Below, one piece after another: positions 1 to 20,356 of a DNA stretch of 64,000 nucleotides; positions within the stretch are counted from its first letter, which is position 1; each line of letters opens with the position of its first letter. This DNA comes from a virus. Lineage: Duplodnaviria; Heunggongvirae; Uroviricota; Caudoviricetes. The DNA lies in the IMG/VR virus record IMGVR_UViG_3300030332_001481, positions 291,486 to 355,485 of that record, one strand, 5' to 3'. The notes below the pieces were generated by a model that was not told where the DNA came from, searched no databases, and worked only from the letters and a program-made list of their open reading frames with translations. The position numbers were made by a program, and so were the translations under genes.

Positions 1-3000
1 CTTGACCTGACTCTTTGCCCTTGGCAGCGAGTCGCATGATCTTCTGGAGAAGGCTGAGGACGGCTGCGTTCTTACGCTTGTAGTCACGCTCGAACGCGTG
101 CTCTGCCTCGGCACGTGCTTGCTGCCAGCCCTTGAGAGCCTTCTGGTACGACTTGTACTGAGTCTTTTGCTTTCCCTTTGGGTCAGACTCGTTGACGTAG
201 TCGGCCTTCTGTGGTAGCGGCGGGATTTCCGCTGCGTCAGGAAGGTCAGGGAACGCCGCGACAAAAGCCTTCGTGTACAGCGCGCTGTCTTCATTGATGC
301 CGACTTCGGTATCCCGAGCAACGTCCTGCTTTGAAGTGTCTCGCTTGGGGGCGCTGTCCAGGTCTACCTGCCGCTGCGACTTCCACTTCTCGTAGCGGCT
401 GTCGAACTTGCTGGTGCTGGTGGAGCTACGACCGGTGAATCTACGGAGGAACTTCTGCTTCTCTTCGTCAGTCAGATCGGGAGGGTTTTTGAACAGGTGG
501 TCGAGCTTGAAGGGCCCGGCTTCGTCGAAGTAGTTCTTCATGCGCACAGCGATGTCGTTGTGCTTCATGATGGGGTGGCGCTCCTTGCGCTCCATCAAGT
601 CTTCGCGAAGCTCTTCCTTCTCTTCCTTGATCCTGTCTCGAAGGTCGAAGTACTGCTCGTCCTGCTTCTCCTTGACTCCATCTAGCTTGGAACGCTCCAG
701 CTTGAGCTGAGTGACCTGTGACCGTAGCTCGGCGAGCTTGCTCCTGTCCTTATCAGACAGGTCCTTCATCCCCTCTACCATCTCCTGGAGATCGGAGACC
801 TTGGCGAGGATGTTGGTGGCCCGGTCAGCCGCTAGCGCACGAGCCTTGGAACGCTCCAGGAAGTCTGGAAGAAACTCCATCTTCTCTTCCAGGGCCTCAA
901 GACCTTCGTCTTCCCAGTCTTCGATGAAGTTGAAGTTGTCCGGAATGTTGGCAGCGTCGGTGCCCTTGTACTCCTTGGACCAAGCACGCACTAGCGCCTG
1001 GAACTTGTTCTTGAAGTTCGCGGGGGTCTCGCCAGCTTCCTCTGCATCCAGGATGCCCTGGATGACCTTCATCAGCTTCTCGATGAACTCGGCCTGTGGG
1101 CCGTCATTTGATGCGACGCTGGGGTCCTGAAGGAACTCCTCGTCGATGTCAAACTCAGGATCAGCAAGCCCCTGCATCTCTGAGGTAAGGGACTCAATCT
1201 CCTCGCGGATCCGGGAGGGATCGCTCTTACGTGCCTCTTCTAGGCTCGCCTCTGTGTCTGCGATCTCCTGGTCCAGCCTGTCGATGTTGTCTAGGGTCTG
1301 CTGACGCGCATCCTTGAGTGCCTGGAACTTAGCGGAGAACGTAGAGGGCTGAGACAGCTCCTTTTCAATCTTGGCGTCCAGACGCTTGACGTCGTGGTAT
1401 AGCCAGTTCTTCAGGCTCTGCAGCGCCTTGCCCGGGTCCTGTGAAGGGTTGAAGACGTGGATCATCCACAACTTCCGCGCTACCTTATCGATATCCGCGT
1501 CGTCATGCGGGAGGCTGCTCTTTAGACGCTCTACGACTGGACGGCTGTCCCTGGCGGGCTTGGGGTCGTCAGCAGGTGAAATACCCTGCTCCCACTCGGA
1601 CTCGTCTGCGTCTGCGTCGAGGTTGTCCTCACGCTCAGCCTGCTGACGCTTCCAGTGCTGGCGGTGGAGCTTGTCCACGTAACCAACGAAGTCCGGCGCC
1701 GCCTCGTTCATGGCGTCACGGAACTCATCTGTCTTCAGAAGGGCAGTGAGGATCGGGTCGAACTTCTCGATCGCCTTCTTATAGGTCTGACGGATCCCGT
1801 GAAGGTTCTGAGGGTCGGACGGGTCGGCGTAACCGAACTCGAACTTGGCAATCTGTTGAAGGCGCTTCTCGACCTTGCGAGGCCCGAGTAGGGTAACAGG
1901 AATAGACTTGAGCATCTTCTCCTCGGGATCGTCGTCCCGGCGGAGAGGACCTGGGATACCCCACATCCAACGCAGAATGTTTTCCTGATCCTGCGTGAGA
2001 TTTGCGTACTCCAGCGTCGCTTCGAGCTTGTCAGCGATATCGTTCCACTGACGGACCCTATTCTCAGTGTCTTCCTCTGTGAGATCACCCTTCAAGAAGT
2101 CGCGAATCTGGGACGGCTTGAGGCCTAGCTTCTGACTGAAGAAAGACCAAACCTTGTCAGGCCGACTAGACTCCTTGCGCGGCTTCCCGCGCATGATGTT
2201 GCGGCGGTAGAACTTGGCAAGGGCATCAAGGGAAGGATCGTCAGTAAGCTCCCACTTCTCCTTGATGATGTCGAAGAGGTTGCTCTGTGCGCGCTCCAGG
2301 CGCTTCCTTACTTCTGTGACAGTGGTCTGGAACCCTGGGTCAGACTCTACCCCATTGAAAGGTGGCTTCGTAGCGATCTGTCGGAACGAGAGAACGTCTC
2401 CGTCCGTACCCAGGCCGAGTCGCCCTGCCAAGATTGCCCGGTCCTTGTCGTCGAGTCGACGGTCGTCCTCGACCATGATGATGTCAGCAAGGATGCTGAA
2501 CCATTCCTCGGCCGTATCCTGGCTGCGGACCTGCTGCATCTGCTCGTAAGGGGTGGCGCCTTCCTCAGGTACCATCTCCTCAAAAGTCACCTCGTCTTCG
2601 TCGTCACCCCCGGTTGATACAGGTGTGACAAAACGAGAGGGTGTGACCTTCTTGTTGAGCTTGACATGAATGGTCTCTCCCGCGTTGGAGGGGGAGAATG
2701 TAAGGGTGCCCTTTGTCGGGTCCAGTACGTATTCATCAGCTCCAGGCTCTACTGAGCTGGCACCAGACGTGGCCTCTGTGACTGTGATCTCCTTCCCAAT
2801 CATGTGAGGGGGAAGGTAGATGTAGTGCGAGGAGTACGACGCAGGGGCGAAAGCATCGTGCTTCTTGACGTAGTCCGCCTTATCCTTGACGCTACCTCCA
2901 CGCATCACTACCAGCGGCAGAGACTTGCCAGAGGGCCCAAGAACGAGGAGCTTCTCTTTTCCGCCCTTCTTGGGGTAGGCGATACGACCGACGTTGTACT

Positions 3001-4804
3001 TGGTGTCTTCTTCAACGATGAAGGCCTTACCGCCCGCAGGCTTGAACTCCTTGCCGTCCGAGTCTCGTGTGACAGAGAATCCGCCGGGCTGAATGCCCCA
3101 GGCGTTCAGGGCTACAACACCGCCGCCGGGGGGCACCTCCACCGTCTTGGAGACTGAATGGACCTCGCTGGTGCTGGTCTCTTCCTTGTAGCGCTCGTAG
3201 AGCTTGCGGAGAGCCATGGGCAGCTTGCCGCCGCTCTTACCATCGCTGCGACCGAAGACCCAGGGGTTGTTGAGGAAGCGGACCTGAGCGTCGGTCTTCT
3301 TGGTTTCCTCTTCACCTTCAAGCTGGATCTCGTCGCCCTTGCCCTTACCCGCGTCGAAGTCGAAGTTGAGGGCCGCCTCCTGGATGGGTCCCAGCATGGC
3401 GTTGTATAGGTCCTGCAGCTCGATGCCCGCAGCTTCGAAGGTCTTGCGGATGCTGCGCCACGCCCCAGGAGACTTGCTGCCCGGGAAGTAGGTGGCCGGG
3501 TTCATGATGACGCGCAAGATCAGCGGCGTCACATAGCGCCCCAGCTCCTGTACCGTCCCGTTGACGTCCTGTGCTTGTGAGCGGAGGGAGTGAGAGTACT
3601 CCAAGAACTCAGGGTCCATTGACTTGTTGCCGAACTCGGCAAAGTCATCCCCAAACTCATCGTCACTGCTTACTGACTTGGCTGCCTCGTAGGACTTCTC
3701 TACCAGGAGGTAGGCCAAGGAGCTGAAGCGTGCGAGCTTGGGTGCAATCTCTTCGTCGACGAACGCACGAATGTGACGCTGTGCCTCAGCGTTGTGGTCG
3801 TCGTGCAGGTCGTGAAGCATCCCCTCAAGCTGCATGAACTCGTGGGTGAGATCGGGAATGGTTCTCTCGTCCTTGGACGAGGTGTCGGCTTCCTGCTCGT
3901 GCCGCAGGTTTTCAATCTCTCCCTCGATGTAGGGGATTGCCGTGTCAAGAACGAAGTCACGGTTCGGGTGAGATAGCAGGAGGGTCCAGATGTTACCCAC
4001 ACCAGACTGGATCTTGCGAAGAAGGTCCTCTTCACGCTCCGGTGTTAGCTTCTTGAACTTGGTGTGGGGCTTGTCCGCCAGGTAGTATTCTACTTTGACG
4101 TTCTGCCCAACGGCGTCTGGACCAAAGTACAGCTTGCCTGTGCTCGGGGCGTAGCCAACGCGACCGCGGTCGAGGTAAAAGCCCTCGGATGCGTTAGGAT
4201 CGGGGCTGAAGAAGATCTCCATCTCACCTGTGAGAGGGTTCTTTCGCTTCTTCGGCTTTCCGTCCTTACCTACGACGGGTGACATGATGCGAGTTTGGAG
4301 CTGCTTCCTGGTCCCATCCTGGTCGATCAAGAACACGCGCATCTTGTGCTGAACGATGTCGACGCCCTTGTCGAGCGGCTTGGACGCACTCTGACTGACC
4401 TTGAACTTCTTGGTCAGCGGCTCCCACTCGAAGTTCTTCGGGTGCAGCTGCCACGGACCTGTCGCAGGAGCGTGGTGCGAGACGGCCTTCTCTGCCCGCT
4501 CGTCTACCTTCTTGTCGAGCTTCTTGGTGTCGAGCTTCGCCGCTTCGCTCTCGTCGATGTCATCGGAGCCATCGTCGTCATCGTCCTCAGACGAAGGAGC
4601 CTCGATCTCCTCATCGCCACGAAGCTCGGACTGTTCCAGCTCCTTGGCCAGGTCAAACCCAGAGTCTTCCGACTCCTCTCCGTCGGAGTCCTGGCTCTCC
4701 AGGTCACTTTCCTCGACGACGGTCATGCCCAACTCGTCTGCTTCTTCAGCAGACATGTTGGCGGAACGGATCTTCTTCTTAACGCTGTTGGAACGACGAG
4801 ACAT
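1..4804 (-). CDS. Giant (>1600 aa, runs off window) sigma-70-like protein with large insertions
   Basis: ATG at 4804, frame open to base 1 (absent from the track because no stop is in the window). Hand translation gives GIELQDLYNAMLGPIQEAALNFDFDAG...VRFL (region 2-like), TPVSTGGDDEDEVTFEEMVPEEGATPYE (region 3.2-like) and LDDKDRAILAGRLGLGTDGDVLSFRQIA...TVTEVRKRLERA (region 4-like). Confidence 0.72.
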   Translation of the reverse strand, partial: MSRRSNSVKKKIRSANMSAEEADELGMTVVEESDLESQDSDGEESEDSGFDLAKELEQSELRGDEEIEAPSSEDDDDDGSDDIDESEAAKLDTKKLDKKVDERAEKAVSHHAPATGPWQLHPKNFEWEPLTKKFKVSQSASKPLDKGVDIVQHKMRVFLIDQDGTRKQLQTRIMSPVVGKDGKPKKRKNPLTGEMEIFFSPDPNASEGFYLDRGRVGYAPSTGKLYFGPDAVGQNVKVEYYLADKPHTKFKKLTPEREEDLLRKIQSGVGNIWTLLLSHPNRDFVLDTAIPYIEGEIENLRHEQEADTSSKDERTIPDLTHEFMQLEGMLHDLHDDHNAEAQRHIRAFVDEEIAPKLARFSSLAYLLVEKSYEAAKSVSSDDEFGDDFAEFGNKSMDPEFLEYSHSLRSQAQDVNGTVQELGRYVTPLILRVIMNPATYFPGSKSPGAWRSIRKTFEAAGIELQDLYNAMLGPIQEAALNFDFDAGKGKGDEIQLEGEEETKKTDAQVRFLNNPWVFGRSDGKSGGKLPMALRKLYERYKEETSTSEVHSVSKTVEVPPGGGVVALNAWGIQPGGFSVTRDSDGKEFKPAGGKAFIVEEDTKYNVGRIAYPKKGGKEKLLVLGPSGKSLPLVVMRGGSVKDKADYVKKHDAFAPASYSSHYIYLPPHMIGKEITVTEATSGASSVEPGADEYVLDPTKGTLTFSPSNAGETIHVKLNKKVTPSRFVTPVSTGGDDEDEVTFEEMVPEEGATPYEQMQQVRSQDTAEEWFSILADIIMVEDDRRLDDKDRAILAGRLGLGTDGDVLSFRQIATKPPFNGVESDPGFQTTVTEVRKRLERAQSNLFDIIKEKWELTDDPSLDALAKFYRRNIMRGKPRKESSRPDKVWSFFSQKLGLKPSQIRDFLKGDLTEEDTENRVRQWNDIADKLEATLEYANLTQDQENILRWMWGIPGPLRRDDDPEEKMLKSIPVTLLGPRKVEKRLQQIAKFEFGYADPSDPQNLHGIRQTYKKAIEKFDPILTALLKTDEFRDAMNEAAPDFVGYVDKLHRQHWKRQQAEREDNLDADADESEWEQGISPADDPKPARDSRPVVERLKSSLPHDDADIDKVARKLWMIHVFNPSQDPGKALQSLKNWLYHDVKRLDAKIEKELSQPSTFSAKFQALKDARQQTLDNIDRLDQEIADTEASLEEARKSDPSRIREEIESLTSEMQGLADPEFDIDEEFLQDPSVASNDGPQAEFIEKLMKVIQGILDAEEAGETPANFKNKFQALVRAWSKEYKGTDAANIPDNFNFIEDWEDEGLEALEEKMEFLPDFLERSKARALAADRATNILAKVSDLQEMVEGMKDLSDKDRSKLAELRSQVTQLKLERSKLDGVKEKQDEQYFDLRDRIKEEKEELREDLMERKERHPIMKHNDIAVRMKNYFDEAGPFKLDHLFKNPPDLTDEEKQKFLRRFTGRSSTSTSKFDSRYEKWKSQRQVDLDSAPKRDTSKQDVARDTEVGINEDSALYTKAFVAAFPDLPDAAEIPPLPQKADYVNESDPKGKQKTQYKSYQKALKGWQQARAEAEHAFERDYKRKNAAVLSLLQKIMRLAAKGKESGQ

Positions 4805-4823: not shown

Positions 4824-5465
4824 CTACTGTAAGATATTTGGCGTGGAAGGCGGAAGTTCTGGAGTCATGGGACCCCCTTCCAGCTCGTCGCCAAGTCCGA
4901 GGTCAAGCTCGCCGTCATCCTCGCTGCCGGAGTCCTTGTCCTTCTTGTCGTCAGGACCGACGCCCTTTTCAGGGAGTGAGTGCTCTACAGGCTTGTCCTT
5001 CTCTTCCTTGTGCTCACGGTCTGCAAGAGTCTGCAGCGTGCCCGTCAGCTCCTTGAGGTCACGAAGGGTGTGCACCTCATCGGCTAGCATGTCCTTGAGT
5101 GTCGCAAGGTCAGATGCCTTGATACCAGGAATGTCTTCCTGGTCAAGTTCAAGGAGCTTTGCCAGCTCCTCTGAGCTGTCTGCTAGCTTCTTTTCAAGCT
5201 TCTCGGTGAGGTCATGGAGTGACGCCACGTTCTTCTTGAACGGGTGCTTCTTGGGAAGAGTGCGCATCAGCGCAAGGAAAGAATCCGCGTTATCCTGCAG
5301 CACTGACAGTGCGTTCTCATCCTTCTCCGTGGTGTGAGTAATGGGGGCATCCACGCCGTCCATCTCGGAGAAGTTGATGGCCTCAATCAGGCGAGCAATA
5401 CGCGGCTGCATGAGCAGCGGCGCGTTGCGGTGTACGTGACTGAGCTTTTTGAGTAGAGTTGACAT
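4824..5465 (-). CDS. Hypothetical protein, coiled coil with acidic C-terminus (putative virion protein)
   Basis: ORF track; ATG at 5465 overlaps the upstream stop (TGATG). Confidence 0.7.
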   Translation of the reverse strand: MSTLLKKLSHVHRNAPLLMQPRIARLIEAINFSEMDGVDAPITHTTEKDENALSVLQDNADSFLALMRTLPKKHPFKKNVASLHDLTEKLEKKLADSSEELAKLLELDQEDIPGIKASDLATLKDMLADEVHTLRDLKELTGTLQTLADREHKEEKDKPVEHSLPEKGVGPDDKKDKDSGSEDDGELDLGLGDELEGGPMTPELPPSTPNILQ

Positions 5466-8293
5466 CAGGACTTTGTGATATCGCGGGTTTGTTCCAATAG
5501 AGGATCCCACATCACAGGAGGGGGTCCGCTTACTTGGTCTAGATAAGGTCCGGGAGGCCTGTCTTCTATCGTGGGATGACCATTCTGTGGTCGGTTAGAC
5601 ATGGGGGACACGAGGTTGTCTGAGGCTTCCTTGTCTTCGGCGTCTACTTCGTCGGAAGACTCAGACTCGTGAAAAGGGGAGAGTCTTACTTCCACCCCGT
5701 CGATCTTCTCGGGGACCTCGTCCCGCATGGACTTTGGCGTAGTAGCGTGGACATGGATGACGGGTGCGCCATCCTCTCCCATGCTGGTGCGCATGTCCTT
5801 GACCCGTGGGTCCCCCTTGAACATGTCCTGGAGCTGGGCAAGGACATCATCCACGTCCGGATCAACCGGCGTGAACTTGATCTTGGTCTTGCTCTTCTGC
5901 TCTTCCTTGGGGACGTAGGTCTTAGTGGAGTCTACGCGTGGACCCTCCTCAACGACAGCGGCAGGGGCAGGCCCCTGGGCTGAGTCAGGCAGGTCCACGC
6001 TTGGGGCTAAAGGGGGCATCACCTCCTCGGGGGCCGGAAGAGGACCCGGGCCGCCGCAGGGGGAGTCCACCGGAGGAGCCATGTCCATAGGGACGGGAGC
6101 AGGTGGTGGCCCCATCCGAGGCATGAAGCGAAGCACAGGGTGAGCGGCAGGCGCAGGGGCTACAGGAGCCGGCGCAGGAGCCGCGTCACCTGGGAACCTA
6201 CCAAAGCCGGGCGGAGGTGCCTCCGGCATCATGTCCCCGCTCGGAAGCTGGAAGATGTAGAAGCCGTTCCCTGTATCGAAGTGGGCAAGACCGTCGCCCA
6301 TCATGCTAGGGGGAGGCGGCAAGGGAAGGTTTCCGCCGTCCATCATGGGAGGGGGCGGAGCCATGTGCTCACACGCGTCCTTCTCGAAGGGGCGAATCCA
6401 CGGACGCTTGATGGTGAACTCCTTGCCGGAATCCAGCGCCTTTACCACGTAGTGCGGGCCACGCTTGGCCTTCTTGTCTACACGAACAAGCTCTACCATG
6501 GAGCTATCACCTGTGTCGGGATCCTTCTCCTGCCAACGGGTGCCTACCTCGGGAATGAGGCCCACTGCACCGTCTGCATAGCGGATCACGTCATCGCTGG
6601 AAGCAATGAGGTAGCTGCGACCCACACGGAGACGGTCCGCAAGGTTGGCGACGCGCTCCTTCAGCGGAGAGTCAGCGGGGAGAAGGTTCGCGATGTCGAT
6701 GAGCTTCTCGCTCGTCTCTAACGAAGCCGTCGCCCGGTGCGCAGACATCTCATTCGACGGCCGAATGTACGTGAACATCAGACGCGCAGGCCCGTTGACC
6801 GCGGAGAACTTCGACAGGGGGAGGTCCTTGAAGCTTCGAATGCCGAAGTCCTTGTCGACAGAAATATCGACATCGTCAAGGATCTCGAAGATCTCAATCT
6901 TGTAGCCGAATTCGTCTCGGATCTCATTGAGAATGAACTTCAAGTCCTCCTCACGCTCGAACGGAATGTCGTACTGCCAAGAACCCGACTTAACGGCTTT
7001 CTTCTTACTGAGGAAGTCGCGGAACTCGGGGTCCCGTAGGGCGTTAGCCGTGAATGTGATCCGCATCATCGGACCAGCAACACGGACGGTCGAGGCGTGT
7101 CTGGGCATCTCAGTACCTTCACTTAGCGTTTCGAGTAGAATCTTATCGGCAGCCACAACTAGGTTTTTGCTAATGAAAACGGGTTCGTTGGCTACCAAAT
7201 ACACGTCATAAGTGAAGTTTCCCTTGCGCTTTGACTTGGGATATTGCTCCAGCATGACGCTAAGGCGGTCATCGGTGACCTTGCCAACGTACAGCTTTCC
7301 ACCTCTACGGTCAGACTCTGTAAGAAGTTGGCGAATGAATGGGTCGGTCTCGGCTAGCTCGGCTAGCTTCTCCCTCATGGACTTGTTGCCCATCTCCTGG
7401 ATGTTTCCCACCCAGTTGCCTTCCTTGAGGCGTACCCACGCCTTGCACTTGACGTACGAACCTTGAATGCCCGAAAGAGCCTGACATTCTTTGTTCTCCC
7501 AGCGGCAGAACGCGAAGTTCTCGGTGAGCTTGGTTGTACGCTCAGGCATGGAATGGTCCGGGCAGTCGTCCGCTTCAACCTTCCAGTTACCCTTGGCTCC
7601 GACATAGGCGGGAATGAGGCCTGCCTCTTCCACGACGTAGTTCTTGATCTTGTCCCGGGACTCTGCCACGCGGTGGGCGGCTAAGTCTGCGCGACGGTTC
7701 TTCAGTAACTTCTCTACCTGGTAGAGAACTTCATGTGGGCTCGCCAAGTTCAACTCCAGAGCCTCCGCGGCCTTCTTGAGCTGCGGCGTGGCTCCCTCTA
7801 CGTACTCTTTGATGATTCCCAGGACCTGCTCACGCTTAGATGTCCAGAAATCGTCGATGTGGTTCCAGTAGGGGCGCACAGCAGCAAGAAACGCCGTCTT
7901 GGGCATATCCCTACCTGAGTGAGCACGAATCAGGTTGATGATCGACGACTCCATCTTGGCGTACTTGGTGTACGCTACCTGCATGGAGTTGTACGCTGTG
8001 GCCAGCTGCGACCTCATCTCGTCGGGTGTCAGAAAGTCCGTCTGAACCAGCGCGGTCACGTTCTTCTGTGCCTGATCGAGAAGACTGAGATGGGAGTCTA
8101 AGAGTGGGGCTACTTCTAGCTCGTTGATTTCGAGGAAGAACTTCCGACCTTCCTCGACCCGGTCGAGGTAGTCCACAGACATGGCCACCAAAGGAGCCAG
8201 GTTTCCAGCGACATTGTTCTTGACCAACGTCTGCCAGTCTGCAGGGCTCACCTCAAGGTAAGCCATAGCCATGTCATCGAGGTCTTTGCTCAC
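5465..8293 (-). CDS. Large multidomain hypothetical protein with Pro-rich linker (putative internal head protein)
   Basis: 942 aa ORF coupled to both neighbours; Cys cluster, SH3-like segment, Pro/Met-rich tract. Confidence 0.8.
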   Translation of the reverse strand: MSKDLDDMAMAYLEVSPADWQTLVKNNVAGNLAPLVAMSVDYLDRVEEGRKFFLEINELEVAPLLDSHLSLLDQAQKNVTALVQTDFLTPDEMRSQLATAYNSMQVAYTKYAKMESSIINLIRAHSGRDMPKTAFLAAVRPYWNHIDDFWTSKREQVLGIIKEYVEGATPQLKKAAEALELNLASPHEVLYQVEKLLKNRRADLAAHRVAESRDKIKNYVVEEAGLIPAYVGAKGNWKVEADDCPDHSMPERTTKLTENFAFCRWENKECQALSGIQGSYVKCKAWVRLKEGNWVGNIQEMGNKSMREKLAELAETDPFIRQLLTESDRRGGKLYVGKVTDDRLSVMLEQYPKSKRKGNFTYDVYLVANEPVFISKNLVVAADKILLETLSEGTEMPRHASTVRVAGPMMRITFTANALRDPEFRDFLSKKKAVKSGSWQYDIPFEREEDLKFILNEIRDEFGYKIEIFEILDDVDISVDKDFGIRSFKDLPLSKFSAVNGPARLMFTYIRPSNEMSAHRATASLETSEKLIDIANLLPADSPLKERVANLADRLRVGRSYLIASSDDVIRYADGAVGLIPEVGTRWQEKDPDTGDSSMVELVRVDKKAKRGPHYVVKALDSGKEFTIKRPWIRPFEKDACEHMAPPPPMMDGGNLPLPPPPSMMGDGLAHFDTGNGFYIFQLPSGDMMPEAPPPGFGRFPGDAAPAPAPVAPAPAAHPVLRFMPRMGPPPAPVPMDMAPPVDSPCGGPGPLPAPEEVMPPLAPSVDLPDSAQGPAPAAVVEEGPRVDSTKTYVPKEEQKSKTKIKFTPVDPDVDDVLAQLQDMFKGDPRVKDMRTSMGEDGAPVIHVHATTPKSMRDEVPEKIDGVEVRLSPFHESESSDEVDAEDKEASDNLVSPMSNRPQNGHPTIEDRPPGPYLDQVSGPPPVMWDPLLEQTRDITKS

Positions 8294-9222
8294 AGCTCAG
8301 TCTCGGTGCTAAGGGCAAGGTAGGCACCTACAGCGTCCCCTCGCTTGAGCGCGGCCAGTACGGGGTCCTGGATTGGGTAGGGTGCTCCCTGTGCAACAGC
8401 GGAAAGGAGTAGCTTCCGCTCTCCCATGGTGGCCTGAAGCCTAGAATCTCCCTCGATAAGGGAATCTAGCTCCTCTACGGTAGCGGTGACCGTCTTCATG
8501 ACGTCAGTGCCAACACGAGAAGCCGTGCGCTGTAGACCACACCGCCGAATGATGCACGCGGCCAACTCCTGGGTGTCGATGACCTTGTCGATGTTTTCAG
8601 CCAGAAGAGTCTTCAACTGATCCGCCATCTCGACGGAACGGCTACCACCGTAGAGCTGCATGTCAGGGCCCATGCTGCGCACAATACGAGCAGCCAGCCT
8701 CTCCATGTCTGCGTTTGAAACGATGGGGGTGTTAGTTTCAAACGCCTCGTTCGTGTATTCACGAAGCCTATCCCATGACTGTTCTTCTGCGTGCTTCTTC
8801 ATGGTGCCGATGGTCTCTGCTGAAATGAGGTTGGGCTGGCTACGGCCAGGGGGAACTGCCATGTAATTGAAGTTCGCTGAAGGCGTACCTGAGGGTCCGC
8901 TGTCCTGACGCGACCTGGATTCCTGGCGATTTTTCTCGCGCAGTTGCGTAGCACGAGACTTTTCACCCTTGCGCCACAGTTCACAGATAATCTCCAAGGC
9001 GTCGGGATCCTTGACCAACTTCTTGTACTGGATCCCCACTTCGTTGAGGCTGTCGAAGAAGGCTTTTGGAGACTTGTCTCGCGATTTACGGAACTTGACG
9101 TACTGAACCTTCATCCCAGATTCAGGATCAACCTCTTCCCACATACGCATGTACCGAAGCTGGTGAGATTTCAGCAGCTTCGGTACAACGTTGCGAATGT
9201 CAACGCGCTTAGTCTGAGGCAT
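8290..9222 (-). CDS. Hypothetical protein
   Basis: ORF track; likely start MPQTK at 9222 after GGAGG RBS. Confidence 0.75.
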   Translation of the reverse strand: MPQTKRVDIRNVVPKLLKSHQLRYMRMWEEVDPESGMKVQYVKFRKSRDKSPKAFFDSLNEVGIQYKKLVKDPDALEIICELWRKGEKSRATQLREKNRQESRSRQDSGPSGTPSANFNYMAVPPGRSQPNLISAETIGTMKKHAEEQSWDRLREYTNEAFETNTPIVSNADMERLAARIVRSMGPDMQLYGGSRSVEMADQLKTLLAENIDKVIDTQELAACIIRRCGLQRTASRVGTDVMKTVTATVEELDSLIEGDSRLQATMGERKLLLSAVAQGAPYPIQDPVLAALKRGDAVGAYLALSTETEL

Positions 9223-9613
9223 CACCCCTCCGACGTGTACGGTTGAACAACTCAGAGAGCCTACGCAGCCTCTCCTCATCCTCGTCGATCTGCTGGATTT
9301 CCTCCAGCTCTTCCTTGACTTCCTCTTCCTTCTCAGCCGCTTCGCGGATCTCCTTCTCGGCCTCTTCGTGGATCTCCGCCAGATCCTCGCGCAGCTTCTC
9401 CTCCTGCTTCTTTAGTGGATCCGTGTCTACGTGGGTGGAGCCACGGCGGCGAAACAGAAAGACCGCCCCGAACACCGCTACCACTCCCCCGATGAGCCAC
9501 AGGGCGTACTTCTTGGCAAGCTCAGGCTTCGTGAACACGAAGACAAGAACGAGGGCCAGTACGCCAAGCAGGATTCCTACAGTGAGGATGTCTTGAAGAA
9601 TGAAGTCAAACAT
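9209..9613 (-). CDS. Membrane protein, 2 TM helices plus acidic coiled coil (possible lysis accessory)
   Basis: Hydrophobic segments ILTVGILLGVLALVLVFVF and ALWLIGGVVAVFGAVFLF, then an E/K-rich coil; ATG 9613 overlaps the upstream stop. Confidence 0.7.
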   Translation of the reverse strand: MFDFILQDILTVGILLGVLALVLVFVFTKPELAKKYALWLIGGVVAVFGAVFLFRRRGSTHVDTDPLKKQEEKLREDLAEIHEEAEKEIREAAEKEEEVKEELEEIQQIDEDEERLRRLSELFNRTRRRGDASD

Positions 9614-10029
9614 CAGAGGACGATGGGTTCGAACTGCGGAGGCACGCCCAGGCTCTCCTCGTACAGGCCCTCCACCCAGCAATGGATGGTGGCTTCCTGG
9701 ACGGAATCCAGGTTCTCGATTGAGAAAGAGTGGTGTACGAGACCAGAACCCAGGTGAGTTGCAGCGAATTCATGCCACAGAAGCTGCCCTGAGGTCACTT
9801 CCTCGCTGAACATGATTGTCGAGAAGGCACCCGTGAGTATGGGATCATCACTGATTCCCAAGTCGAAAGTGTGGGTCAACGTCACCTGAACAGCGGCCGA
9901 CGCTACATTTCGAAAGAAGATCTTGGGCTGGATGACGGGCGAGACAGGGAGGTTCGTTTCCAGCGCAGTGGAACGTGTCTCTGACGCATCGAGACGAAAG
10001 GGGTAGTGCTGTCGAAAGGAAACGAGCAT
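9613..10029 (-). CDS. Hypothetical beta-rich protein
   Basis: 138 aa ORF in a tightly packed operon. Confidence 0.7.
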   Translation of the reverse strand: MLVSFRQHYPFRLDASETRSTALETNLPVSPVIQPKIFFRNVASAAVQVTLTHTFDLGISDDPILTGAFSTIMFSEEVTSGQLLWHEFAATHLGSGLVHHSFSIENLDSVQEATIHCWVEGLYEESLGVPPQFEPIVL

Positions 10030-10032
10030 GAA

Positions 10033-10293
10033 TCAGTCCTTCAGGAGACGCCGTAAGCGTGCGCCAAGTGAGGCGAACCGGTGTGAGGGAGTCTCCCCAG
10101 AGTCAAGATAAGGTGAAACACCCTTCAATCCGCAGATTCGCTCAAAGTGAGCACGTGCCTTCGCCCACTGACGACGCACTGTTTTCGCGTCGTAGATGTC
10201 GTCGGCGTATTTCTTACAGACGTTACGCCAGATACTCTCAGCTTCCGGGTTCAGACGAGCAGGAGCGTTGTTGGGGGACGGTGTATTTTTCAC
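10033..10293 (-). CDS. Small helical protein (ChaB-like module, paralogous to part of 12745-13539)
   Basis: LNPEAESIWRNV...QWAKARAHFERICGLKGVSPY aligns with CSPQALPLWNSI...KWALAEKFWLSECARKGTPAY. Confidence 0.7.
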   Translation of the reverse strand: MKNTPSPNNAPARLNPEAESIWRNVCKKYADDIYDAKTVRRQWAKARAHFERICGLKGVSPYLDSGETPSHRFASLGARLRRLLKD

Positions 10294-10724
10294 AGCTGCT
10301 CCTCGATGCGCTTTTTGGACCTAAGCTCGTCGTTGGCGTCGCTGCCTGTGTCTAGCTGCTGCTTGAGCGGCGTATCAATGGGAGCAGCACACGTGACAGG
10401 AACCGTTTTGGCTAGGTCCCCTACCTGTGTCAGACCGTGACCTGCCAGCAGGGAGGCGGTCACATTTGCCTGTAGGTTGAAACGAGCAGGTGGATGGTTG
10501 AACAAGAACTTGAAGGACCCATCAGCGTTGCCGAACCTGCGGTCAAAGCAGATTTCAGCCACGGTAACTCCTCGGTGTATGAGGGAAGTAGTACCGGTCC
10601 CCACGAACTCGGGGTGTGCCAGCTGCTCATCCGAGTCTGGATCGTAGATCCATGCCTCTACGAGAACAGTATCACCGTCCTCGATGTACTCAGCTTTGAC
10701 ATCTAGGTAGAGGTTGGTGGGCAT
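10290..10724 (-). CDS. Hypothetical Ig-like/beta protein
   Basis: 144 aa ORF overlapping the downstream start. Confidence 0.7.
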   Translation of the reverse strand: MPTNLYLDVKAEYIEDGDTVLVEAWIYDPDSDEQLAHPEFVGTGTTSLIHRGVTVAEICFDRRFGNADGSFKFLFNHPPARFNLQANVTASLLAGHGLTQVGDLAKTVPVTCAAPIDTPLKQQLDTGSDANDELRSKKRIEEQL

Positions 10725-10727
10725 CTA

Positions 10728-11138
10728 TTAGTCGGGGGATGGGGCCTTGAAGGTGGTTCCCTGTGACCCAACCGTGATGTTGCGGTTGTCCCAGATGATG
10801 GAGTCGGGGTCGGAGACCACAAGCGTGTAGCTGTCTACAATCGTGTCGGCGCCTGCATCATAGGAGTACGTGATGGTGCACACGTACTGATGAAACGTAG
10901 CTGCTTCGATGTTCAGTGCCCCAGAGTATAGGAAGCTGGACCCTGGAACGAGGGTTAGATCGATCTCGCCCAGCGTGCCCATGTCGAGATCCTTGACCAT
11001 GGAACCTGTGTCCGGGTCAGTGCGGAAGATCTCACAGAGGGGATCGGCATCGGGGCTCACCAATGACCCGTCAGAGCGCTTGCACACTGTGGTGATCGCT
11101 ACGTGGGACATCCCCTTGTGTGCGAGTAAAAACGACAT
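10728..11138 (-). CDS. Hypothetical Ig-like/beta protein (putative structural)
   Basis: 136 aa beta-strand-rich ORF, TGATG coupling. Confidence 0.7.
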   Translation of the reverse strand: MSFLLAHKGMSHVAITTVCKRSDGSLVSPDADPLCEIFRTDPDTGSMVKDLDMGTLGEIDLTLVPGSSFLYSGALNIEAATFHQYVCTITYSYDAGADTIVDSYTLVVSDPDSIIWDNRNITVGSQGTTFKAPSPD

Positions 11139-12748
11139 CAGCTAAGGTCCATGACTGAGGGTAAATCGTTGTCGGAGATACTACGATTGAACGTGCGCCC
11201 AACACCAGACGTGGTCTCCCATGCCTTCAAGAGATCGTTGACCTGCTTGATCCACGCAATGATCTCACTCTTCTTCTGAGCTGCTGCCCTAAAAGATAGG
11301 GGCTTATGGAAGTACAGAGCTGCCCCCGTGTTGGTGCGGTGAATGTCACTCTCGATTCCAAGGACTCCCTCAAGCGCAGCCTTCTCATTCTCCAAGATGT
11401 TGACAATCGTGTCCTTGAGAGTGGTGCCGTCCTTGTCCTTGTGCCTGTCGGTGGGGGCGTTTGCCCAGATGATCATAGGACGGTAGTGCTGGTCGAAGTC
11501 CAGGAACCCAGAGAACCTATCCTGGCTGACCTCATTGACGGTCACCTGGTAGATGTCGGGGGTGAGCATCTTCTGCTCGGAGAATTCTAAGGTCGGGAGG
11601 TGTTGCCCTGACAGGTGACCTGGAGGAATCGTTGTCTTGATTACTGGGATGGTCTTGCCGTCATCTGACAGATCGTTGAACATCTTCTCGATCTCGTCCC
11701 AGCCCGACTTGTCCGTACGCTGCCCTGGCTCAACTCCCAGAATCTGAACGAACTTGTCGTGGTAGGCCTCCAGCTTGGCATTGTCGGAAGACACTAGAAC
11801 TGCACGACTCCCAGTCGCCAGGTAGTCGGTCTGTACTGCTCCCTTGGAGTGCTCAGTGACCCTGCGGAGGATTCTACGGGCTTCCTCTGCCTTGGTCTTT
11901 GGGATGAGTACAGTGTAACGACCCCGGGGCTTCTCGAAGATATCGAGACCAGCGTTGAACTCCGAAGGATCGTCTTTGGTAACCTTACGGAGAAGGTTCC
12001 AAGCGATGGCGGCATCAACCGGCGAAACTGCGTAGTAGTGGGTGTCTGCGCTGTCCATTTCAAAGTTGAAGTCTAGAATCGACTTACTGAGATGGTACAG
12101 GGTAACGCTCTCCTGGGCGTCGCTGGTGCCCGCGTGTTGGTTGACAAACGCGCTGAGCTTGTCGTACTGGGCATCCATGAACTCGGACTGATGCGGGGAG
12201 GGACGGTGAGTTGACTCCGTGTCAACATGGTAGTTCTGACCGTCAAGCTCGATGCTCTTTACCGCACGGATGATCCCGTTCACGACGTTATCGAGCTTGA
12301 GGGGTGTTCCCTTAGGGGAATCCACTACTATGGCGTCTACCTCATGAATCTTGTCTAGCAGGGTCCTGAGGGGCTGATCGAGTGCACCAGGATTAGGTGC
12401 TCGGGGGTGCGCCCGCTCAGGCAACTCGAAGGTACCATTGGTGACTGAGTTGACCTTCTCGAACCGACGAATGAACGAAGGCAACAGGTAGCCGTTGTGT
12501 TCCAGTGTGGTCGCAACTGCCCAGAGCCCCTTGAGAATGTTCTTTCCCTGATCAGATCCCAGGACGCCGTGACTGTACATCACGGAGAAGATCGTGGACA
12601 TCACGCGGTCGAACACCGTGGCGCTCACGCCAGGCGGGACCTCAGCAACCTTCAAGGTCGGGTCCGTCATGACTCGATGAGCGAGCTTCTGCAGTTCGAT
12701 GGCCTGCTCTTCAAGTAGAATTTTGGTGATCGACATCGAATAACTCAC
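11138..12748 (-). CDS. Hypothetical protein (putative virion protein)
   Basis: 536 aa ORF coupled on both sides. Confidence 0.8.
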   Translation of the reverse strand: MSYSMSITKILLEEQAIELQKLAHRVMTDPTLKVAEVPPGVSATVFDRVMSTIFSVMYSHGVLGSDQGKNILKGLWAVATTLEHNGYLLPSFIRRFEKVNSVTNGTFELPERAHPRAPNPGALDQPLRTLLDKIHEVDAIVVDSPKGTPLKLDNVVNGIIRAVKSIELDGQNYHVDTESTHRPSPHQSEFMDAQYDKLSAFVNQHAGTSDAQESVTLYHLSKSILDFNFEMDSADTHYYAVSPVDAAIAWNLLRKVTKDDPSEFNAGLDIFEKPRGRYTVLIPKTKAEEARRILRRVTEHSKGAVQTDYLATGSRAVLVSSDNAKLEAYHDKFVQILGVEPGQRTDKSGWDEIEKMFNDLSDDGKTIPVIKTTIPPGHLSGQHLPTLEFSEQKMLTPDIYQVTVNEVSQDRFSGFLDFDQHYRPMIIWANAPTDRHKDKDGTTLKDTIVNILENEKAALEGVLGIESDIHRTNTGAALYFHKPLSFRAAAQKKSEIIAWIKQVNDLLKAWETTSGVGRTFNRSISDNDLPSVMDLS

Positions 12749-13539
12749 TTCTTAGGTCGGATAGGAGCCCAACGCCCTAGGTCGTAGCCGTCTTTCTCAA
12801 GCTGCTGCCACAGCGCCTTCATCTTGCGCGCAGCAGGCCGGCTCATCGTGTAGCCCTCGTAGCAAAGACCGTTCGCCAGCTCCTTCATGGACCTATGGAT
12901 GGTCGAGGACCCATGAACAGAGGTAGAAGAGGGACTAGCATCCTGCTTGTAGGCAGGGGTGCCCTTCCTTGCACACTCAGATAACCAGAACTTCTCCGCG
13001 AGAGCCCACTTATCAGAGTTGGCCTTTGGAGCCATGATCATCTTGCGCTTCTTCTTGTCACGCAAGATCGAGTTCCAGAGGGGAAGTGCCTGGGGAGAGC
13101 ATCCCTGCGGGGGCTGACCTACCTTGGGCCGCCCACCACCAGCAGCTGTGCAGAGCTTTCGACGCTCCGCCTTGGGCATCGCAGCCGCTGTCCTCAAAAT
13201 CTCCTTGAAGGGGGTCTCCTGTGGAGCGGACAATCCAAGGGCAGCAGCTCCCTCATCGAGGGTGGTGGGATTCCACACACGAGCTACAGCCAGGCGCAGG
13301 TCAGAAAGACTCACACTGGACTTGACGAACGTTTCCGCCGAGCGAACAGAGGCTTGCTTCGTGGTAAGTCCCAAGGTCTGAAGAGTGCCGAAGAACTCAT
13401 GGGCGTAACGGTGCGGCAGCGCCTTGAAGATCTTCAAGAACGCGTCCTCACTTGCCAAGATCTCATACAGCTTCTCAGCCGACGCTGAGTACACCAGAGA
13501 CCGCTGGGTTTCCAGGTCTGACATCAGGATCTCAGGCAA
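12745..13539 (-). CDS. Basic hypothetical protein with ChaB-like module
   Basis: 264 aa ORF; similarity to 10033-10293 and 11138-12748. Confidence 0.75.
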   Translation of the reverse strand: MPEILMSDLETQRSLVYSASAEKLYEILASEDAFLKIFKALPHRYAHEFFGTLQTLGLTTKQASVRSAETFVKSSVSLSDLRLAVARVWNPTTLDEGAAALGLSAPQETPFKEILRTAAAMPKAERRKLCTAAGGGRPKVGQPPQGCSPQALPLWNSILRDKKKRKMIMAPKANSDKWALAEKFWLSECARKGTPAYKQDASPSSTSVHGSSTIHRSMKELANGLCYEGYTMSRPAARKMKALWQQLEKDGYDLGRWAPIRPKK

Positions 13540-14023
13540 GCTCCGCGAGAAGTGAAATCTCAGCGGCGTTCTTCTGCCCGAGCTTGTACGCCAAGCGAAG
13601 GTCCTTGTTCAGCTTGGTTCCCTTACGAGCAGCAACCACTGAGCCAGCCACAGCCGCAACCAGACGAGTCGCAAGGGCTTCTGCACCCTTGAACCCAGCC
13701 TTGGTCAAGCTAGCCTGGATCTTGTTACGAACCTCCACGAAGTCCGGAGACTTGGACGCCGACTTGGCACCCGCCTGCGCGGCCTGGCTCATGCTTCCAA
13801 TGAAGCTCTGAAGAAGCTGGGCTAACGTCTCGGGCGGAATCGCCTCCATCATCTTGGGAAGCTGCTTCATGACCTGAGGTCCCATCCGGCTAAGCATCGG
13901 TCCGATGCCTCGAATGAGGGCCATGAGAGCGGGGTTCGCCGTCTTCTGCAGGTCGGCAACTACGAGCTTGCGTAGGCGGGCCGCCGTGCGTAGCATCTTC
14001 TTCTGTTCCGGGGTCCGGTTCAT
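13532..14023 (-). CDS. Ala/Met-rich helical hypothetical protein
   Basis: 163 aa ORF with GAGG RBS. Confidence 0.75.
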   Translation of the reverse strand: MNRTPEQKKMLRTAARLRKLVVADLQKTANPALMALIRGIGPMLSRMGPQVMKQLPKMMEAIPPETLAQLLQSFIGSMSQAAQAGAKSASKSPDFVEVRNKIQASLTKAGFKGAEALATRLVAAVAGSVVAARKGTKLNKDLRLAYKLGQKNAAEISLLAELA

Positions 14024-14026
14024 GAT

Positions 14027-15481
14027 TCAAATCCTCTTGTGTAGGGGCAAGCCCTTAGGAAACTCTGGGCCCTCAATGGTTTCGTACGTTTGAGGTGCCT
14101 TGACGTAGGTCACGATGTGAGGATCTGTACCGGGAAATAGTGGGCCAAGGCCTTCTTTGTCCTCCGCCTCATCCATCTCTCCAGCGTCATCCTCGTCTTC
14201 TGCGTCCGGCAGAAGCTTGGTAATTCTATCAGCTACTTCCAGGCCTCGATCCTCGGCTACAGCCCTTACGTACCTAAGTCTAGATAACAGGGAGGCAGGG
14301 ACGTATTGTGCAAGTACTTGATATTGCATCATGAGTGCAGACCCGTGGGTCTCCACACCCAGGACGTTCACCTTCATCTCCTTGCCGTCAATGGCAAGCT
14401 TGATGGCGCCACGGGCATCCAGCACAAGGTCTTCGTACTTGGGGCTGAGAAGGTTGAAGATCAATCTCCCTGAGTGCTCCTCTACCACCTCGATGTCAGC
14501 GCGAGAGTTGCCGATCTGCATGTAGCTCTGCTTGCCCGCGGCCATGCGCTTAGGCATGTCGCCTAGGTAGAGCGGGGTCATCTGCTCGTCGCCTCGGCAG
14601 ACCATGATATGGTCAACCGTCCAGGCAACGGAGGGACACACCTTCTTCTCCCCTGGGCCGTCTACGTAATCGAGCGTTGTGTGCGGCTTGTACTGGTCGT
14701 ACGCGAACTTAGTGTCCACAAGACCTGGGAACTTGAACTCCAGGAACGCCACAATCTCAGTGTGCAGGTAGTCGTGTGGGGTCCTAATGTTGGCTACCCA
14801 GGGATATTTCCCCTCGTCGGACGGGTTCAGGAAGACCTGAGAGCCGTCTGTCATGGCGTCGAAGCTCCTGAATTTCTTCAGGAAATCGCGGAGCTTGTTG
14901 CGTACGCTGTCGTAGTCTTCCTCAGACAGCTCAGGCATGTAGCAGAGCGTGACGTGAGGTGCGTACTCCAGGTCATCGGCGTAGGGGAGGCCCAGATTGG
15001 TAGGTACCTGGAGGGACAGAACACCGGAGCGCGACTTCGCCGCCATCTTGGGGGACTGATCTGCAGATGTGAAGGCGAACGAGAGCGCGAAGGGAGAGTC
15101 AGCGTACTCTTCGAGCGTCCCACCAGCGGGGATCTCCGTCATGCCTGCCAGAGTACCTCGAAAAGAGTCAGTTGAGATCTTGAACTCAACTGTGTGTCCC
15201 TTTTGGCTCTTCAGGAAGTTGTAGTCACTGATGATGTCGTCGACAGACGAGTACCCACCGTCCCGCGCCCATGTGAACTCGATGACCAGGTTGACACCAT
15301 CGGCGATGGCGTTGAGAAGTGTACCATCCCACGACTTCCCGCTTACAGAGAAGTGGACATCCCGGTTGAGATACTTGGTAAAAATCCTCTCGGCAGACTC
15401 CGGATCTAGGATTCTATCAGCTACCTTGAGAACCAACATGATGAACCTACTTGTCGAGGCAGCGGCGAATCGCCTGCTCAA
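14027..15481 (-). CDS. Multidomain protein with central 2H phosphoesterase (LigT/Acb1-like) domain
   Basis: Two HxT motifs, APHVTLCY and KPHTTLDY, about 90 aa apart. Confidence 0.75.
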   Translation of the reverse strand: MSRRFAAASTSRFIMLVLKVADRILDPESAERIFTKYLNRDVHFSVSGKSWDGTLLNAIADGVNLVIEFTWARDGGYSSVDDIISDYNFLKSQKGHTVEFKISTDSFRGTLAGMTEIPAGGTLEEYADSPFALSFAFTSADQSPKMAAKSRSGVLSLQVPTNLGLPYADDLEYAPHVTLCYMPELSEEDYDSVRNKLRDFLKKFRSFDAMTDGSQVFLNPSDEGKYPWVANIRTPHDYLHTEIVAFLEFKFPGLVDTKFAYDQYKPHTTLDYVDGPGEKKVCPSVAWTVDHIMVCRGDEQMTPLYLGDMPKRMAAGKQSYMQIGNSRADIEVVEEHSGRLIFNLLSPKYEDLVLDARGAIKLAIDGKEMKVNVLGVETHGSALMMQYQVLAQYVPASLLSRLRYVRAVAEDRGLEVADRITKLLPDAEDEDDAGEMDEAEDKEGLGPLFPGTDPHIVTYVKAPQTYETIEGPEFPKGLPLHKRI

Positions 15482-16232
15482 GCCCTTCGACCCAGCGGCG
15501 GCAAGTAGCCGCCTTGGAGCAGAAGAAGGTCGTCCGATCGAACGTGTACGCGTCGACTCCGTCGAGGCGGAACTTCTCCATCAGCGTGCGCCCGTCATTA
15601 CCCTGGACAGCCTCAACTGTGAGCCCGTAGGACTCCAGCTGGTACCAGGTGCAGGGCTTGGGTAGGGCCGTGTTCTTGCCGCTTCTGCGCTTTGAGGAGG
15701 CATCGGCGGGACAAACCGAGAACTTGTAGGCAGACTTGGCCTTCACCATCTTGGCCAGGTCCATAACTGCCTCGGCGTCAAGGCCTGTAGGCGGACGAGT
15801 CGCCAGAAGCAGGCAATCACCCCCATCGCAGAGGACGTGCTCCCCTACGTTGGCGCGAGGTCCGGTGACGGTGTTGGATGACGGCTTGACCTTGGTGGGT
15901 CCACCCTTGAAAGAAAAGCCCTCAGCCTGCATGGCCTGCTTGAGTCGGATCAGAAGACGCATCACACGGTCGTTCTGTGTGTAGCTGGTCTTGTCCACCA
16001 CGTGCTGCATGATCTGGTCATACAGATTCTCGGCATCGGTGGAATAGTTCCCCCGCGGCTTGGTCGACCGCTTCTTGGTCGTCTTTTTCTTCGCAGGGGA
16101 CTTCTTCTTGGATGTAGTCTTCTTGGTGGACTTCGTCTTCTTGGCGGGGGCCTTCTTCTTAGTGGTCTTTTTCTTGGTCGTCTTCTTACGTCCTGCAAGG
16201 ACGCGCAGACGCTCAGCGATCACAGTACTCAT
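15447..16232 (-). CDS. Protein with Lys-rich histone-H1-like N-terminus
   Basis: KKTTKKKTTKKKAPAKKTKSTKKTTSKKKSPAKKKTTKK tract. Confidence 0.75.
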   Translation of the reverse strand: MSTVIAERLRVLAGRKKTTKKKTTKKKAPAKKTKSTKKTTSKKKSPAKKKTTKKRSTKPRGNYSTDAENLYDQIMQHVVDKTSYTQNDRVMRLLIRLKQAMQAEGFSFKGGPTKVKPSSNTVTGPRANVGEHVLCDGGDCLLLATRPPTGLDAEAVMDLAKMVKAKSAYKFSVCPADASSKRRSGKNTALPKPCTWYQLESYGLTVEAVQGNDGRTLMEKFRLDGVDAYTFDRTTFFCSKAATCRRWVEGLEQAIRRCLDK

Positions 16233-16570
16233 GACTTACCTAGCTTGCGAAGGGCGACGCGGTAACGGAACAGCGCCTCAGCGCTGGCGTCGTAGTTGGT
16301 GCTGGCTGTGCGGAGGCTGGCTCGGTCGAACACCTCTTCCATCGCCTGCGAGGACTCTACGGAGGCCAGGACTTCTTCGTAGATGCGGTGGACCAGCCCA
16401 TCGTCGTGCAGCTTTCCCGCCGCTGCGGTGATATGCTCGGCAGCCGCGAGCACGGCATCAGCTACCACCTCGCGAGGGTCGCGTGCAGGGGAAATCAGGC
16501 GGTTCAGGCGCTCCAACTTGTCTAGACGAGCCGTTACCTTGGCAATCCTGGTCTGTAGGTCTTCTCTCAT
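16229..16570 (-). CDS. Hypothetical helical protein
   Basis: 113 aa ORF, ATGA overlaps on both sides. Confidence 0.7.
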   Translation of the reverse strand: MREDLQTRIAKVTARLDKLERLNRLISPARDPREVVADAVLAAAEHITAAAGKLHDDGLVHRIYEEVLASVESSQAMEEVFDRASLRTASTNYDASAEALFRYRVALRKLGKS

Positions 16571-16830: not shown

Positions 16831-16918
16831 GTGGCCCAGATAATGTGTACTAGGCATTTGTTCAACGAGAAAGCGAGCTTTGCCAACCCTGGCCATACTA
16901 TACGTAAAGGAGGACCTT

Positions 16919-20093: not shown

Positions 20094-20356
20094 GCTTCCC
20101 TAGTATGCGCAGGGTTGGACAGTGCCGTTACATCCACTCCGCCCTCACACCCAGCAGCTCTAACAACTGGGCTAGGTCGAGAGTTTCGAGGCTACCCTCA
20201 GACAGAACGCTGGGGTGATCTATTGACGCCGAAGGCAGGACCCACGCGGGTGAATCTAGCGACAGTAATACGGGGCCTGCGATTCCACTAGTCTGCCGCT
20301 TTCGAATTTCCTCCAGCAAGGCAGGCAGTGGAAGCAAGTCCAGACCTTCAGGTGTC

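Follow-up and report, generated by a model that had tools for sequence, protein, structure and literature searches.

A phage gene for a protein of 2,814 amino acids (aa), which begins like a bacterial sigma factor and lies near the end of an operon downstream of head genes, raises the question of what such a protein would be for. It enters the 64-kb stretch of DNA analysed here (the window), positions 291,486-355,485 of a 388,485-bp circular contig with a terminal repeat and a GC content of 56.6%. An initial annotation, made from the letters of the window, had described one minus-strand frame open from an ATG at position 4804 past base 1 and had proposed to recover its C-terminus from the adjacent sequence. 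The frame is intact and longer than had been supposed: no in-frame stop precedes a TGA at genome position 287,845, and the protein, here called the giant (P0002), is the largest called protein of its genome. Profile and structure comparisons indicate that its N-terminal third very probably descends from the sigma70 family, and the explanation that we favour, tentatively, is that it is an early sigma factor delivered by the virion.

The whole stretch encoding the giant is present in a single contig of one public assembly with zero differences (this assembly may be the source of the DNA). In strain variants from three other sequencing runs, the listed insertions and deletions fall in the acidic C-terminal linker and are net in-frame.

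A sigma-like core

Seven syntenic homologues of the giant were found, two through portal-bearing relatives and five more loci through profiles and neighbour genes. Six measure 2,813, 2,593, 2,637, 3,276, 2,610 and 2,437 aa; the seventh (L046:9404-18583) is split into three overlapping open reading frames, by an assembly error or a real break. Their cores are 23-33% identical to that of P0002, the gene order around the giant is the same in 7/7 homologue loci, and all eight sequences have an isoelectric point of 4.6-5.2 and 0-1 Cys. The giant is also the largest protein in each of the three complete genomes examined, those of this phage (G000) and of two relatives (G001 and G011).

The core was searched for in 10 portal-bearing relatives and was strongly matched in 2; as most of the rest are fragments (2-62%), absence from them is not implied. 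A homologue search of a set of 5.8 billion proteins, which may miss remote relatives, returned the giant itself only, and single-sequence scans of IMG/VR, INPHARED and GTDB were empty. The giant has no match in the cultured distant relatives PaBG, phiRSL1 and RHph_N46 (0/3), nor by BLASTP with the phage's own sigma factor. PDB sequence searches gave weak antibody matches only, an Atlas search nothing usable for the core, and a BFVD search no E below 1e-3. Atlas leads from aa 1640-2030 to clusters of extracytoplasmic function sigma factors and helix-turn-helix proteins were all below 0.9, received no support from sliding-window profiles and were rejected.

The first check proposed in the initial annotation, a search with family profiles for sigma regions 2, 3 and 4, came out negative in its simple form: Pfam, NCBIfam and PHROGs on the whole giant, and Pfam on sub-regions, gave no sigma match above cut-off. 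Comparison of profiles with profiles came out positive. We slid 68 windows along the family alignment and compared them to the domains in an alignment of 24 sigma factors of groups 1-3, taken from E. coli RpoD and from loci in metagenome-assembled genomes (MAGs), with reversed windows as the null. Sigma2 scored best at sliding windows 361-441 (24.9, 24.5 and 24.4; reversed maximum 17.8) and sigma3.2+4 at 681-721 (37.8; reversed maximum 18.1), and these best windows are colinear with the sigma order. A second, short sigma2 match (10-17 columns) appeared at 921-1001 with scores of 22.6-23.4; for sigma1.2 and sigma3 nothing rose above the null in this comparison. In targeted hhalign runs, sigma2 reached 29.8 (shuffled maximum 18.6) and sigma3.2+4 reached 39.2 (shuffled maximum 20.2; P 88%, E 2.7e-6). 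Nowhere is the chain better conserved than in the sigma3.2-4 blocks, with 0.31-0.32 mean identity.

Structure comparison points to the same segments. An AlphaFold2 (AF2) model of aa 247-1030 was built from the eight homologues only, with zero sigma sequences added (predicted local distance difference test score, pLDDT, 68.7); single-sequence AF2 was uninformative (pLDDT 35). Among 48,161 chains compared with the model, E. coli sigma70 (1SIG) ranks first, with aa 255-539 placed on sigma70 residues 113-446 (Z 8.8, root-mean-square deviation (rmsd) 5.5, 209 aligned), followed by SigB, pro-sigmaK and Caulobacter sigma70; the top four rows are all sigma factors, and 27 of the 50 structural rows are sigma or transcription-complex entries. 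The match to 5yix has Z 12.1 at rmsd 4.8 (226 aligned), and region 1.2 lies inside the structural match to sigma70. Isolated sigma4 domains align on the first sigma4-like domain, region 4 of SigR (5fgm) with Z 6.7, rmsd 2.3 and 65/65 residues aligned. All six Foldseek rows with a probability above 0.75 are sigma70 chains.

Since profiles and structure single out the same segments, in the order of a sigma factor, we favour sigma ancestry despite the modest Z values; on these independent computed comparisons, sigma70-family descent of the N-terminal third is very probable. The sigma70-like identity first proposed from the letters alone is thereby supported, and most of its parts are where they had been placed. 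The region 2-like segment noted at 3450-3270 corresponds to aa 452-512, that is, to regions 2.2-2.3 within a full unit that runs from region 1.2 through the nonconserved region (NCR) to 2.4, and the 3.2-like and first region 4-like segments are those of the hhalign and SigR matches above. The claim of a second region 4 copy stood only in part. That segment carries a motif, ENILRxxW, invariant in 8/8 rows, and matches the first copy at 25.8; it did not rise above the null against bacterial sigma4, and no structural row covers it alone. The order 1.2-NCR-2-3.0-3.2-4 is that of the sigma70 family (E. coli RpoD, 1SIG and 5yix; sigma28/FliA; SigB; sigma-K), and the fold of 1.2-NCR-2 is like that of group 1 sigma factors.

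Departures from ordinary sigma factors

Unlike members of the sigma70 family, the giant extends to 2,814 aa, has capsid-type beta modules in place of sigma3 and a second sigma4-like segment, lacks the Q/E pair of sigma2.2, ends in an acidic tail of ~1,800 aa and stays below the Pfam and NCBIfam thresholds.

No sigma3 profile match lies near the core, and in the AF2 model a beta sandwich takes the place of the sigma3 helix-turn-helix, within a 177-aa beta insert between regions 3.0 and 3.2. This beta module is homologous to the insert domain of a 234-aa virion protein of the same phage (hhalign P 92%, score 37.5; null maximum 13.3), and a hidden Markov model (HMM) of it, run on 1,767 proteins, matches only that protein and the giants. 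The gene of the 234-aa protein adjoins the scaffold gene; its PHROG label (phrog_16710), position and look suggest a capsid decoration protein. Of the structural rows for the beta insert, 16/19 are parts of phage or injection-system particles (neck, tail, baseplate). The module recurs near the N-terminus, as one weak copy in P0002 and as 1-2 further clear copies in the homologues. Replacement of the sigma3 helix-turn-helix by beta modules common to a capsid-decoration-type protein, as read from the model and the profiles, is new here.

In sigma2.2, residues D403, Q406 and E407 are contacts to core RNA polymerase. The giants have D or E at 403 in 7/8 rows and L404 in 8/8; the ordinary phage sigma factor also lacks E407. 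The W433/W434 dyad and Q437 are missing from the giant in 8/8 rows, with P at the W433 position in 6/8, and P0002 carries insertions in 2.3-2.4. Absence of the W-dyad from 2.3-2.4 is a likeness to sigma28, which initiates without it; group 3 factors also lack it (PMC12784957).

The N-terminus is very acidic, as had been noted (Table 1). The >500 aa of coiled coil in the initial annotation look overstated: by eye, aa ~1140-1410 are charged and helical with proline-rich breaks, at 10-19% identity. The C-terminal ~1,800 aa are acidic and none of their segments is matched by Pfam; a conserved block at aa 1700-2100 (23-28%) consists of short repeated helical modules. Pfam found none of the typical polyvalent enzyme domains (MPTase, ART, MTase-helicase) in the giant, C-terminal segments included. 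By eye, a C-terminal winged-helix-like segment and a 'PATEKQ...KGEASD' segment occur in homologue parts (L035:18216-19307, P0005, P0006 and L047), and P0002 has neither; Pfam at E 0.05 names neither. P0002 has the pattern LxxxGxxxxAxxL three times (aa 2398-2510), and a conserved 431-aa gene (G000:C1:49405-50700) has it once, N-terminally. It was not used as evidence: 0/7 homologues carry it, and an HMM of the 431-aa gene misses the giant.

Promoter-like motifs in three genomes

Unbiased k-mer counts on upstream regions yielded three classes of motif in each of the three complete genomes. Class 1 is a contiguous promoter-like motif of ~19 bp, which reads CCAACCCTGGCCATACTAG in G000 (59 sites, 48 of them intergenic), GAACCCTGCCGATAnTA in G001 (72 sites) and CAAAGTCCGnCGATACTA in G011 (63 sites), with 0 matches in five shuffles of G000. 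In G000, a same-strand gene lies within 400 nt of 57/59 sites. The sites cluster in a region of small genes (50/59 between 100 and 260 kb), stand before an ArdA anti-restriction gene and gyrase B, and are missing from the tail, sheath, replication and sigma-recA blocks; the head block holds three, each serving inserted small genes. In the register used here, class 1 keeps A-11 and T-7 with C or G at -12, and in G001 its -10 end matches GCCGATAA, the -10 element of sigma28, so that the candidate -10 element is a further likeness to sigma28. Sigma28 promoters have no counterpart of the -24 to -16 block, which is ~90% conserved. There are fewer canonical TTGACA/TATAAT sites than in shuffled sequence (17 versus 43 in one shuffle).

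Class 2, [GAC]TTAT[CT]T, occurs in 23, 20 and 25 upstream regions of the three genomes (shuffled 5.0, 7.2 and 4.1; antisense 10, 7 and 7). It heads the terminase/portal, baseplate and giant operons of G000; before the giant's operon in G001 and G011 there are only looser TATTT variants. Class 3, CTGTAAA, is strand-biased and occurs in 18, 11 and 20 regions (shuffled 1.0-1.7), for example at window 22106-22112 before a 211-aa gene.

Classes 2 and 3 are identical across the three phages. Class 1 varies: the G000 matrix finds 9/72 G001 sites and 0/63 G011 sites. The giants of the three genomes are 24-29% identical. We pair class 1 with the giant because both vary between phages, whereas the 2.3-2.4 helix of the ordinary sigma factor and classes 2 and 3 are invariant.

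Operon context and transcription machinery

The genome contains genes for portal, terminase, head protease, baseplate J, gyrase, PolA, ribonucleotide reductase and RecA, and judged from such marker genes the phage is a jumbo myophage with a contractile-tail-type baseplate. Its portal shares ~30% identity with the portals of PaBG, phiRSL1, Yoloswag and Y3. Marine metagenomes contain the phage sequence, five of the 13 listed runs possibly being its source and no RNA data set being among the listed ones; two runs from other studies gave pieces mostly 99% alike.

The gene of the giant is the second-last of 17 in a run without a gap of more than 19 bp (308,315 to 287,267), on the same strand as the head genes and downstream of the portal, protease and capsid genes. 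As with virion RNA polymerases (vRNAPs), the setting is a late morphogenesis operon, the timing being judged from context. The operon also encodes a 2H-phosphoesterase-type protein (window 14027-15481, minus strand) with a weak Acb1 / 2'-5' RNA ligase match, a candidate for a packaged counter-defence protein.

No Pfam match to RNA polymerase beta or beta-prime was obtained in five phage records (controls detected 14/14), a search that could miss very diverged polymerases, and a double-psi barrel catalytic subunit with a DxDGD motif was not found. As neither subunit was found, the host enzyme is presumably used. An ordinary sigma factor of 416 aa is encoded at genome 359,951-361,201 and passes Pfam Sigma70_r2; a separate ordinary sigma (409-460 aa) was present in 4/4 relatives tested. 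The 416-aa sigma retains WW and Q437, residues that favour T at -12, and its 2.3-2.4 helix hardly differs between the three complete genomes. A 310-aa gene and then recA follow it, an order like sigma-SSB-UvsX in PaBG.

A proposed virion-delivered sigma factor

In the explanation that we favour, the giant would be synthesised late, packaged in the head of the phage and passed into the host together with the DNA. It would then bind host core RNA polymerase and direct it to the phage's 19-bp class 1 motif, probably an early promoter. Its sigma2 domain would hold on to the clamp helices of beta-prime and open the motif at its -10-like end, [CG]A[TC]AnT. The beta insert, at the place of sigma3, might recognise the conserved block from -24 to -14; that the class 1 motif is contiguous and lacks a -35 element would then be accounted for. 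Packaging and exit may be the task of the beta modules and of the long acidic tail. One of the two invariant short motifs would be left for the 416-aa sigma to use at a later stage of infection. The two-stage logic of the virion and non-virion polymerases of phiKZ/AR9 would here be carried out by two sigma factors on the host enzyme.

These steps differ in strength. The giant is probably packaged in the virion, a reading that gains support from the late-type head operon, the capsid-type beta modules, the lack of a detected polymerase and the variation of class 1 between phages. Late synthesis, packaging, delivery, core binding and class 1 recognition taken together stand a little short of an even chance. 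The fullest form of the proposal, in which a lineage of ~390-420-kb phages injects a head-packed 300-kDa sigma, with which the host polymerase starts ~60 private early promoters before any phage protein is made, and in which a beta domain of the capsid-decoration type, substituted for sigma3, reads the contiguous -24 to -14 block and so takes promoter design outside the -35/-10 scheme, is a possibility that we put forward with reserve.

Several results weigh against a packaged early sigma. Sigma2.2 Q406 and E407 are kept in 0/8 rows. Class 1 offers neither sigma4-like domain a conserved -35 element to read: T[TA]A[AG]G lies upstream of only 18/59, 10/72 and 10/63 sites in the three genomes. 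Region 1.2 alone scored under its sequence null (10.4; shuffled maximum 12.0), as did the second sigma4-like segment against bacterial sigma4 (14.1; shuffled maximum 15.1). No Foldseek E-value reaches 1e-3, and Z 8.8 at rmsd 5.5 is under the level that the tool deems safe for helical bundles. A common N-terminal motif for processing by the head protease showed no enrichment; the candidate [LIVM][KR]xA, found by eye in 4/7 giants, occurs in ~11% of all genes, is unenriched in head genes and was dropped. In the decoration protein the beta module probably lies on the surface, and an outer fibre would suit it equally well. The label 'early' for class 1 is drawn from gene size and position, and the first genes after class 1 sites fall only modestly below the average in conservation (core genes 11/53, 7/58 and 11/55 versus 157/562, 159/549 and 156/656). 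With three motif classes, two detected sigma factors and no class 1 site in the ordinary sigma's block, the cascade is incomplete, and the apparent co-variation of class 1 with the giant rests on three genomes.

Of the competing explanations, a structural virion protein on a sigma-derived scaffold, either an inner-core DNA organiser or an outer head fibre with no role in transcription, survives best, and we think it unlikely. A chain of which two thirds are acidic, repetitive and without a family match, with beta modules that come from a capsid protein and no sigma2.2 Q/E pair, would suit such a role. It would not account for sigma subdomains kept in sigma order in 8/8 core rows at 23-33% identity, with sigma3.2-4 the best conserved part of the chain, and it would leave class 1 without a phage-specific reader.

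Class 1 might instead be read by a group 3 sigma of the host aided by a phage activator, by the 416-aa sigma or by some small factor that escaped detection, the giant being an unpackaged late sigma for a subset of promoters. We hold this to be improbable, slightly more so than a structural role. The resemblance of the class 1 -10 end to the sigma28 element, the excess of three motif classes over two detected sigmas and a possible second sigma-like gene in PaBG (PMC7412058) speak for it. However, the -24 to -16 block is foreign to sigma28 promoters, the 416-aa sigma keeps WW and Q437 in a helix that is invariant while class 1 varies, and a late sigma encoded at the end of the late operon would not be made in time to switch it on.

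Least probable in our view is a sigma-derived decoy or remodeller that, whether delivered or made late, binds host core and displaces host sigmas or parks the enzyme without choosing promoters. The giant retains the 3.2 finger, which serves initiation and not mere binding. Loss of the W-dyad and Q437, the replaced sigma3 helix-turn-helix, the P0002 insertions in 2.3-2.4 and two sigma4 domains without a matching -35 element would be expected of a hijacking factor, for which T4 Alt and AsiA are precedents (PMC7824862, PMC5512222), but sigma28 initiates without the W-dyad (PMC12784957) and the divergent class 1 motif would still need a divergent reader.

Comparison with known systems

The known ways in which lytic phages start transcription are strong host-type promoters, modification of the host polymerase (T4 Alt) and injection of a whole polymerase (N4, phiKZ). 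The N4 vRNAP, of ~3,500 aa, is similar in size to the giant. The vRNAPs of N4 and phiKZ/AR9 are described as late-made, packaged and injected, and start early transcription at phage-specific promoters (PMC5512222, PMC13282480). The logic proposed for the giant is like theirs; unlike in those systems, no polymerase subunit is detected, and the specificity factor alone would be delivered. Contractile-tail phages deliver large head proteins such as the phiKZ vRNAP, P1 DarB and T4 Alt (PMC5512222, PMC13282480). Polyvalent proteins, as characterised in PMC5512222, are large and multidomain, are encoded in late gene clusters and are delivered with the DNA to jump-start infection. The giant, large, multidomain and in a late cluster, is like these injected head proteins (P1 DarB, T4 Alt; Iyer et al. 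2017); a typical polyvalent enzyme domain was not among its Pfam matches.

In jumbo phages that lack a polymerase of their own, phage sigma factors have been proposed to redirect the host core polymerase (PMC7824862, PMC7412058, PMC13282480). Those such as PaBG gp118 and T4 gp55 (group 2 of Iyer et al. 2021) are small and made during infection, unlike the giant, which would be a second sigma gene, in the head operon. We found no description of a virion-packaged sigma in the literature searched, outside which most subscription papers lie; the word 'sigma' has 0 occurrences in the main text of PMC5512222, although the supplements of Iyer et al. might list such domains.

If the proposal holds, delivery of a sigma factor alone would be a further route to phage early transcription. 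It is testable without phage culture because a candidate factor (aa 247-1030) and a candidate promoter are known for three phages, whose differing motifs might give orthogonal pairs of sigma and promoter.

Other features of the window

Coordinates of the segments of the giant and of related features are collected in Table 1.

Table 1. Features of the giant, its operon and associated motifs, in window coordinates
Feature	Position	Strand	Basis
Giant protein with sigma-like core, aa 1-1601 of 2,814	1-4804, on to genome 287,845	-	open reading frame
Second sigma4-like segment, aa ~925-1020; conserved, weakly supported as sigma4	1745-2032	-	
First sigma4-like helix-turn-helix domain, aa 767-852	2249-2506	-	profile and structure
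Sigma 3.2-like acidic linker, aa 725-760	2525-2632	-	profile comparison
Predicted beta-sandwich insert, aa 548-724, at sigma3 place; phage neck/tail/baseplate fold	2633-3163	-	model, profiles
Sigma70-like region 1.2, helical NCR, 2.1-2.4/3.0, aa 247-546	3167-4066	-	profiles, 1SIG, 5yix
N-terminal beta-rich region, aa ~115-243; one weak beta-module copy	4076-4462	-	
Acidic N-terminal segment, aa 1-100, 35 D/E	4505-4804	-	composition
15 upstream genes of the gap-free operon; order conserved in relatives	4824-16830	-	
Late-type class 2 motif TTAT[CT]T heading the giant's operon	16838-16844	-	
Class 1 early-type motif, one of 59, pointing away from the operon	16881-16904	+	
Class 1 motif before inserted small gene	20097-20120	-	
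Class 1 motif before inserted HD-domain gene	31701-31724	+	
Decoration-type protein, phrog_16710; insert domain aa 66-145 at 36181-36420	35911-36615	-	PHROGs, profiles

The 186-aa gene directly after that of the giant (L001:10980-11540, minus strand) belongs to an unnamed family with eight weak relatives (23-30%) in Deltaproteobacteria, Myxococcota, Bdellovibrionota-type and Schekmanbacteria MAGs, a weak hint at the host; a ClpP identity comparison was uninformative in that respect. One of the 30 tRNAs of G000 has the anticodon CTA, of the amber-suppressor type (G000:C1:130879-130954); TAG accounts for 127/562 called stops, which indicates no clear recoding.

The major capsid gene is in three pieces (window 26356-28726, minus strand), which correspond to aa 1-118, 119-202 and 201-362 of its G001 counterpart; a LAGLIDADG endonuclease gene (27626-28324) occupies the first gap. 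From this arrangement, the gene is probably split by two introns. Three large Vsr/HNH-type genes resembling homing endonucleases are inserted around the capsid genes, at window 22154-26087 (minus strand) and 34287-35855 (plus strand).

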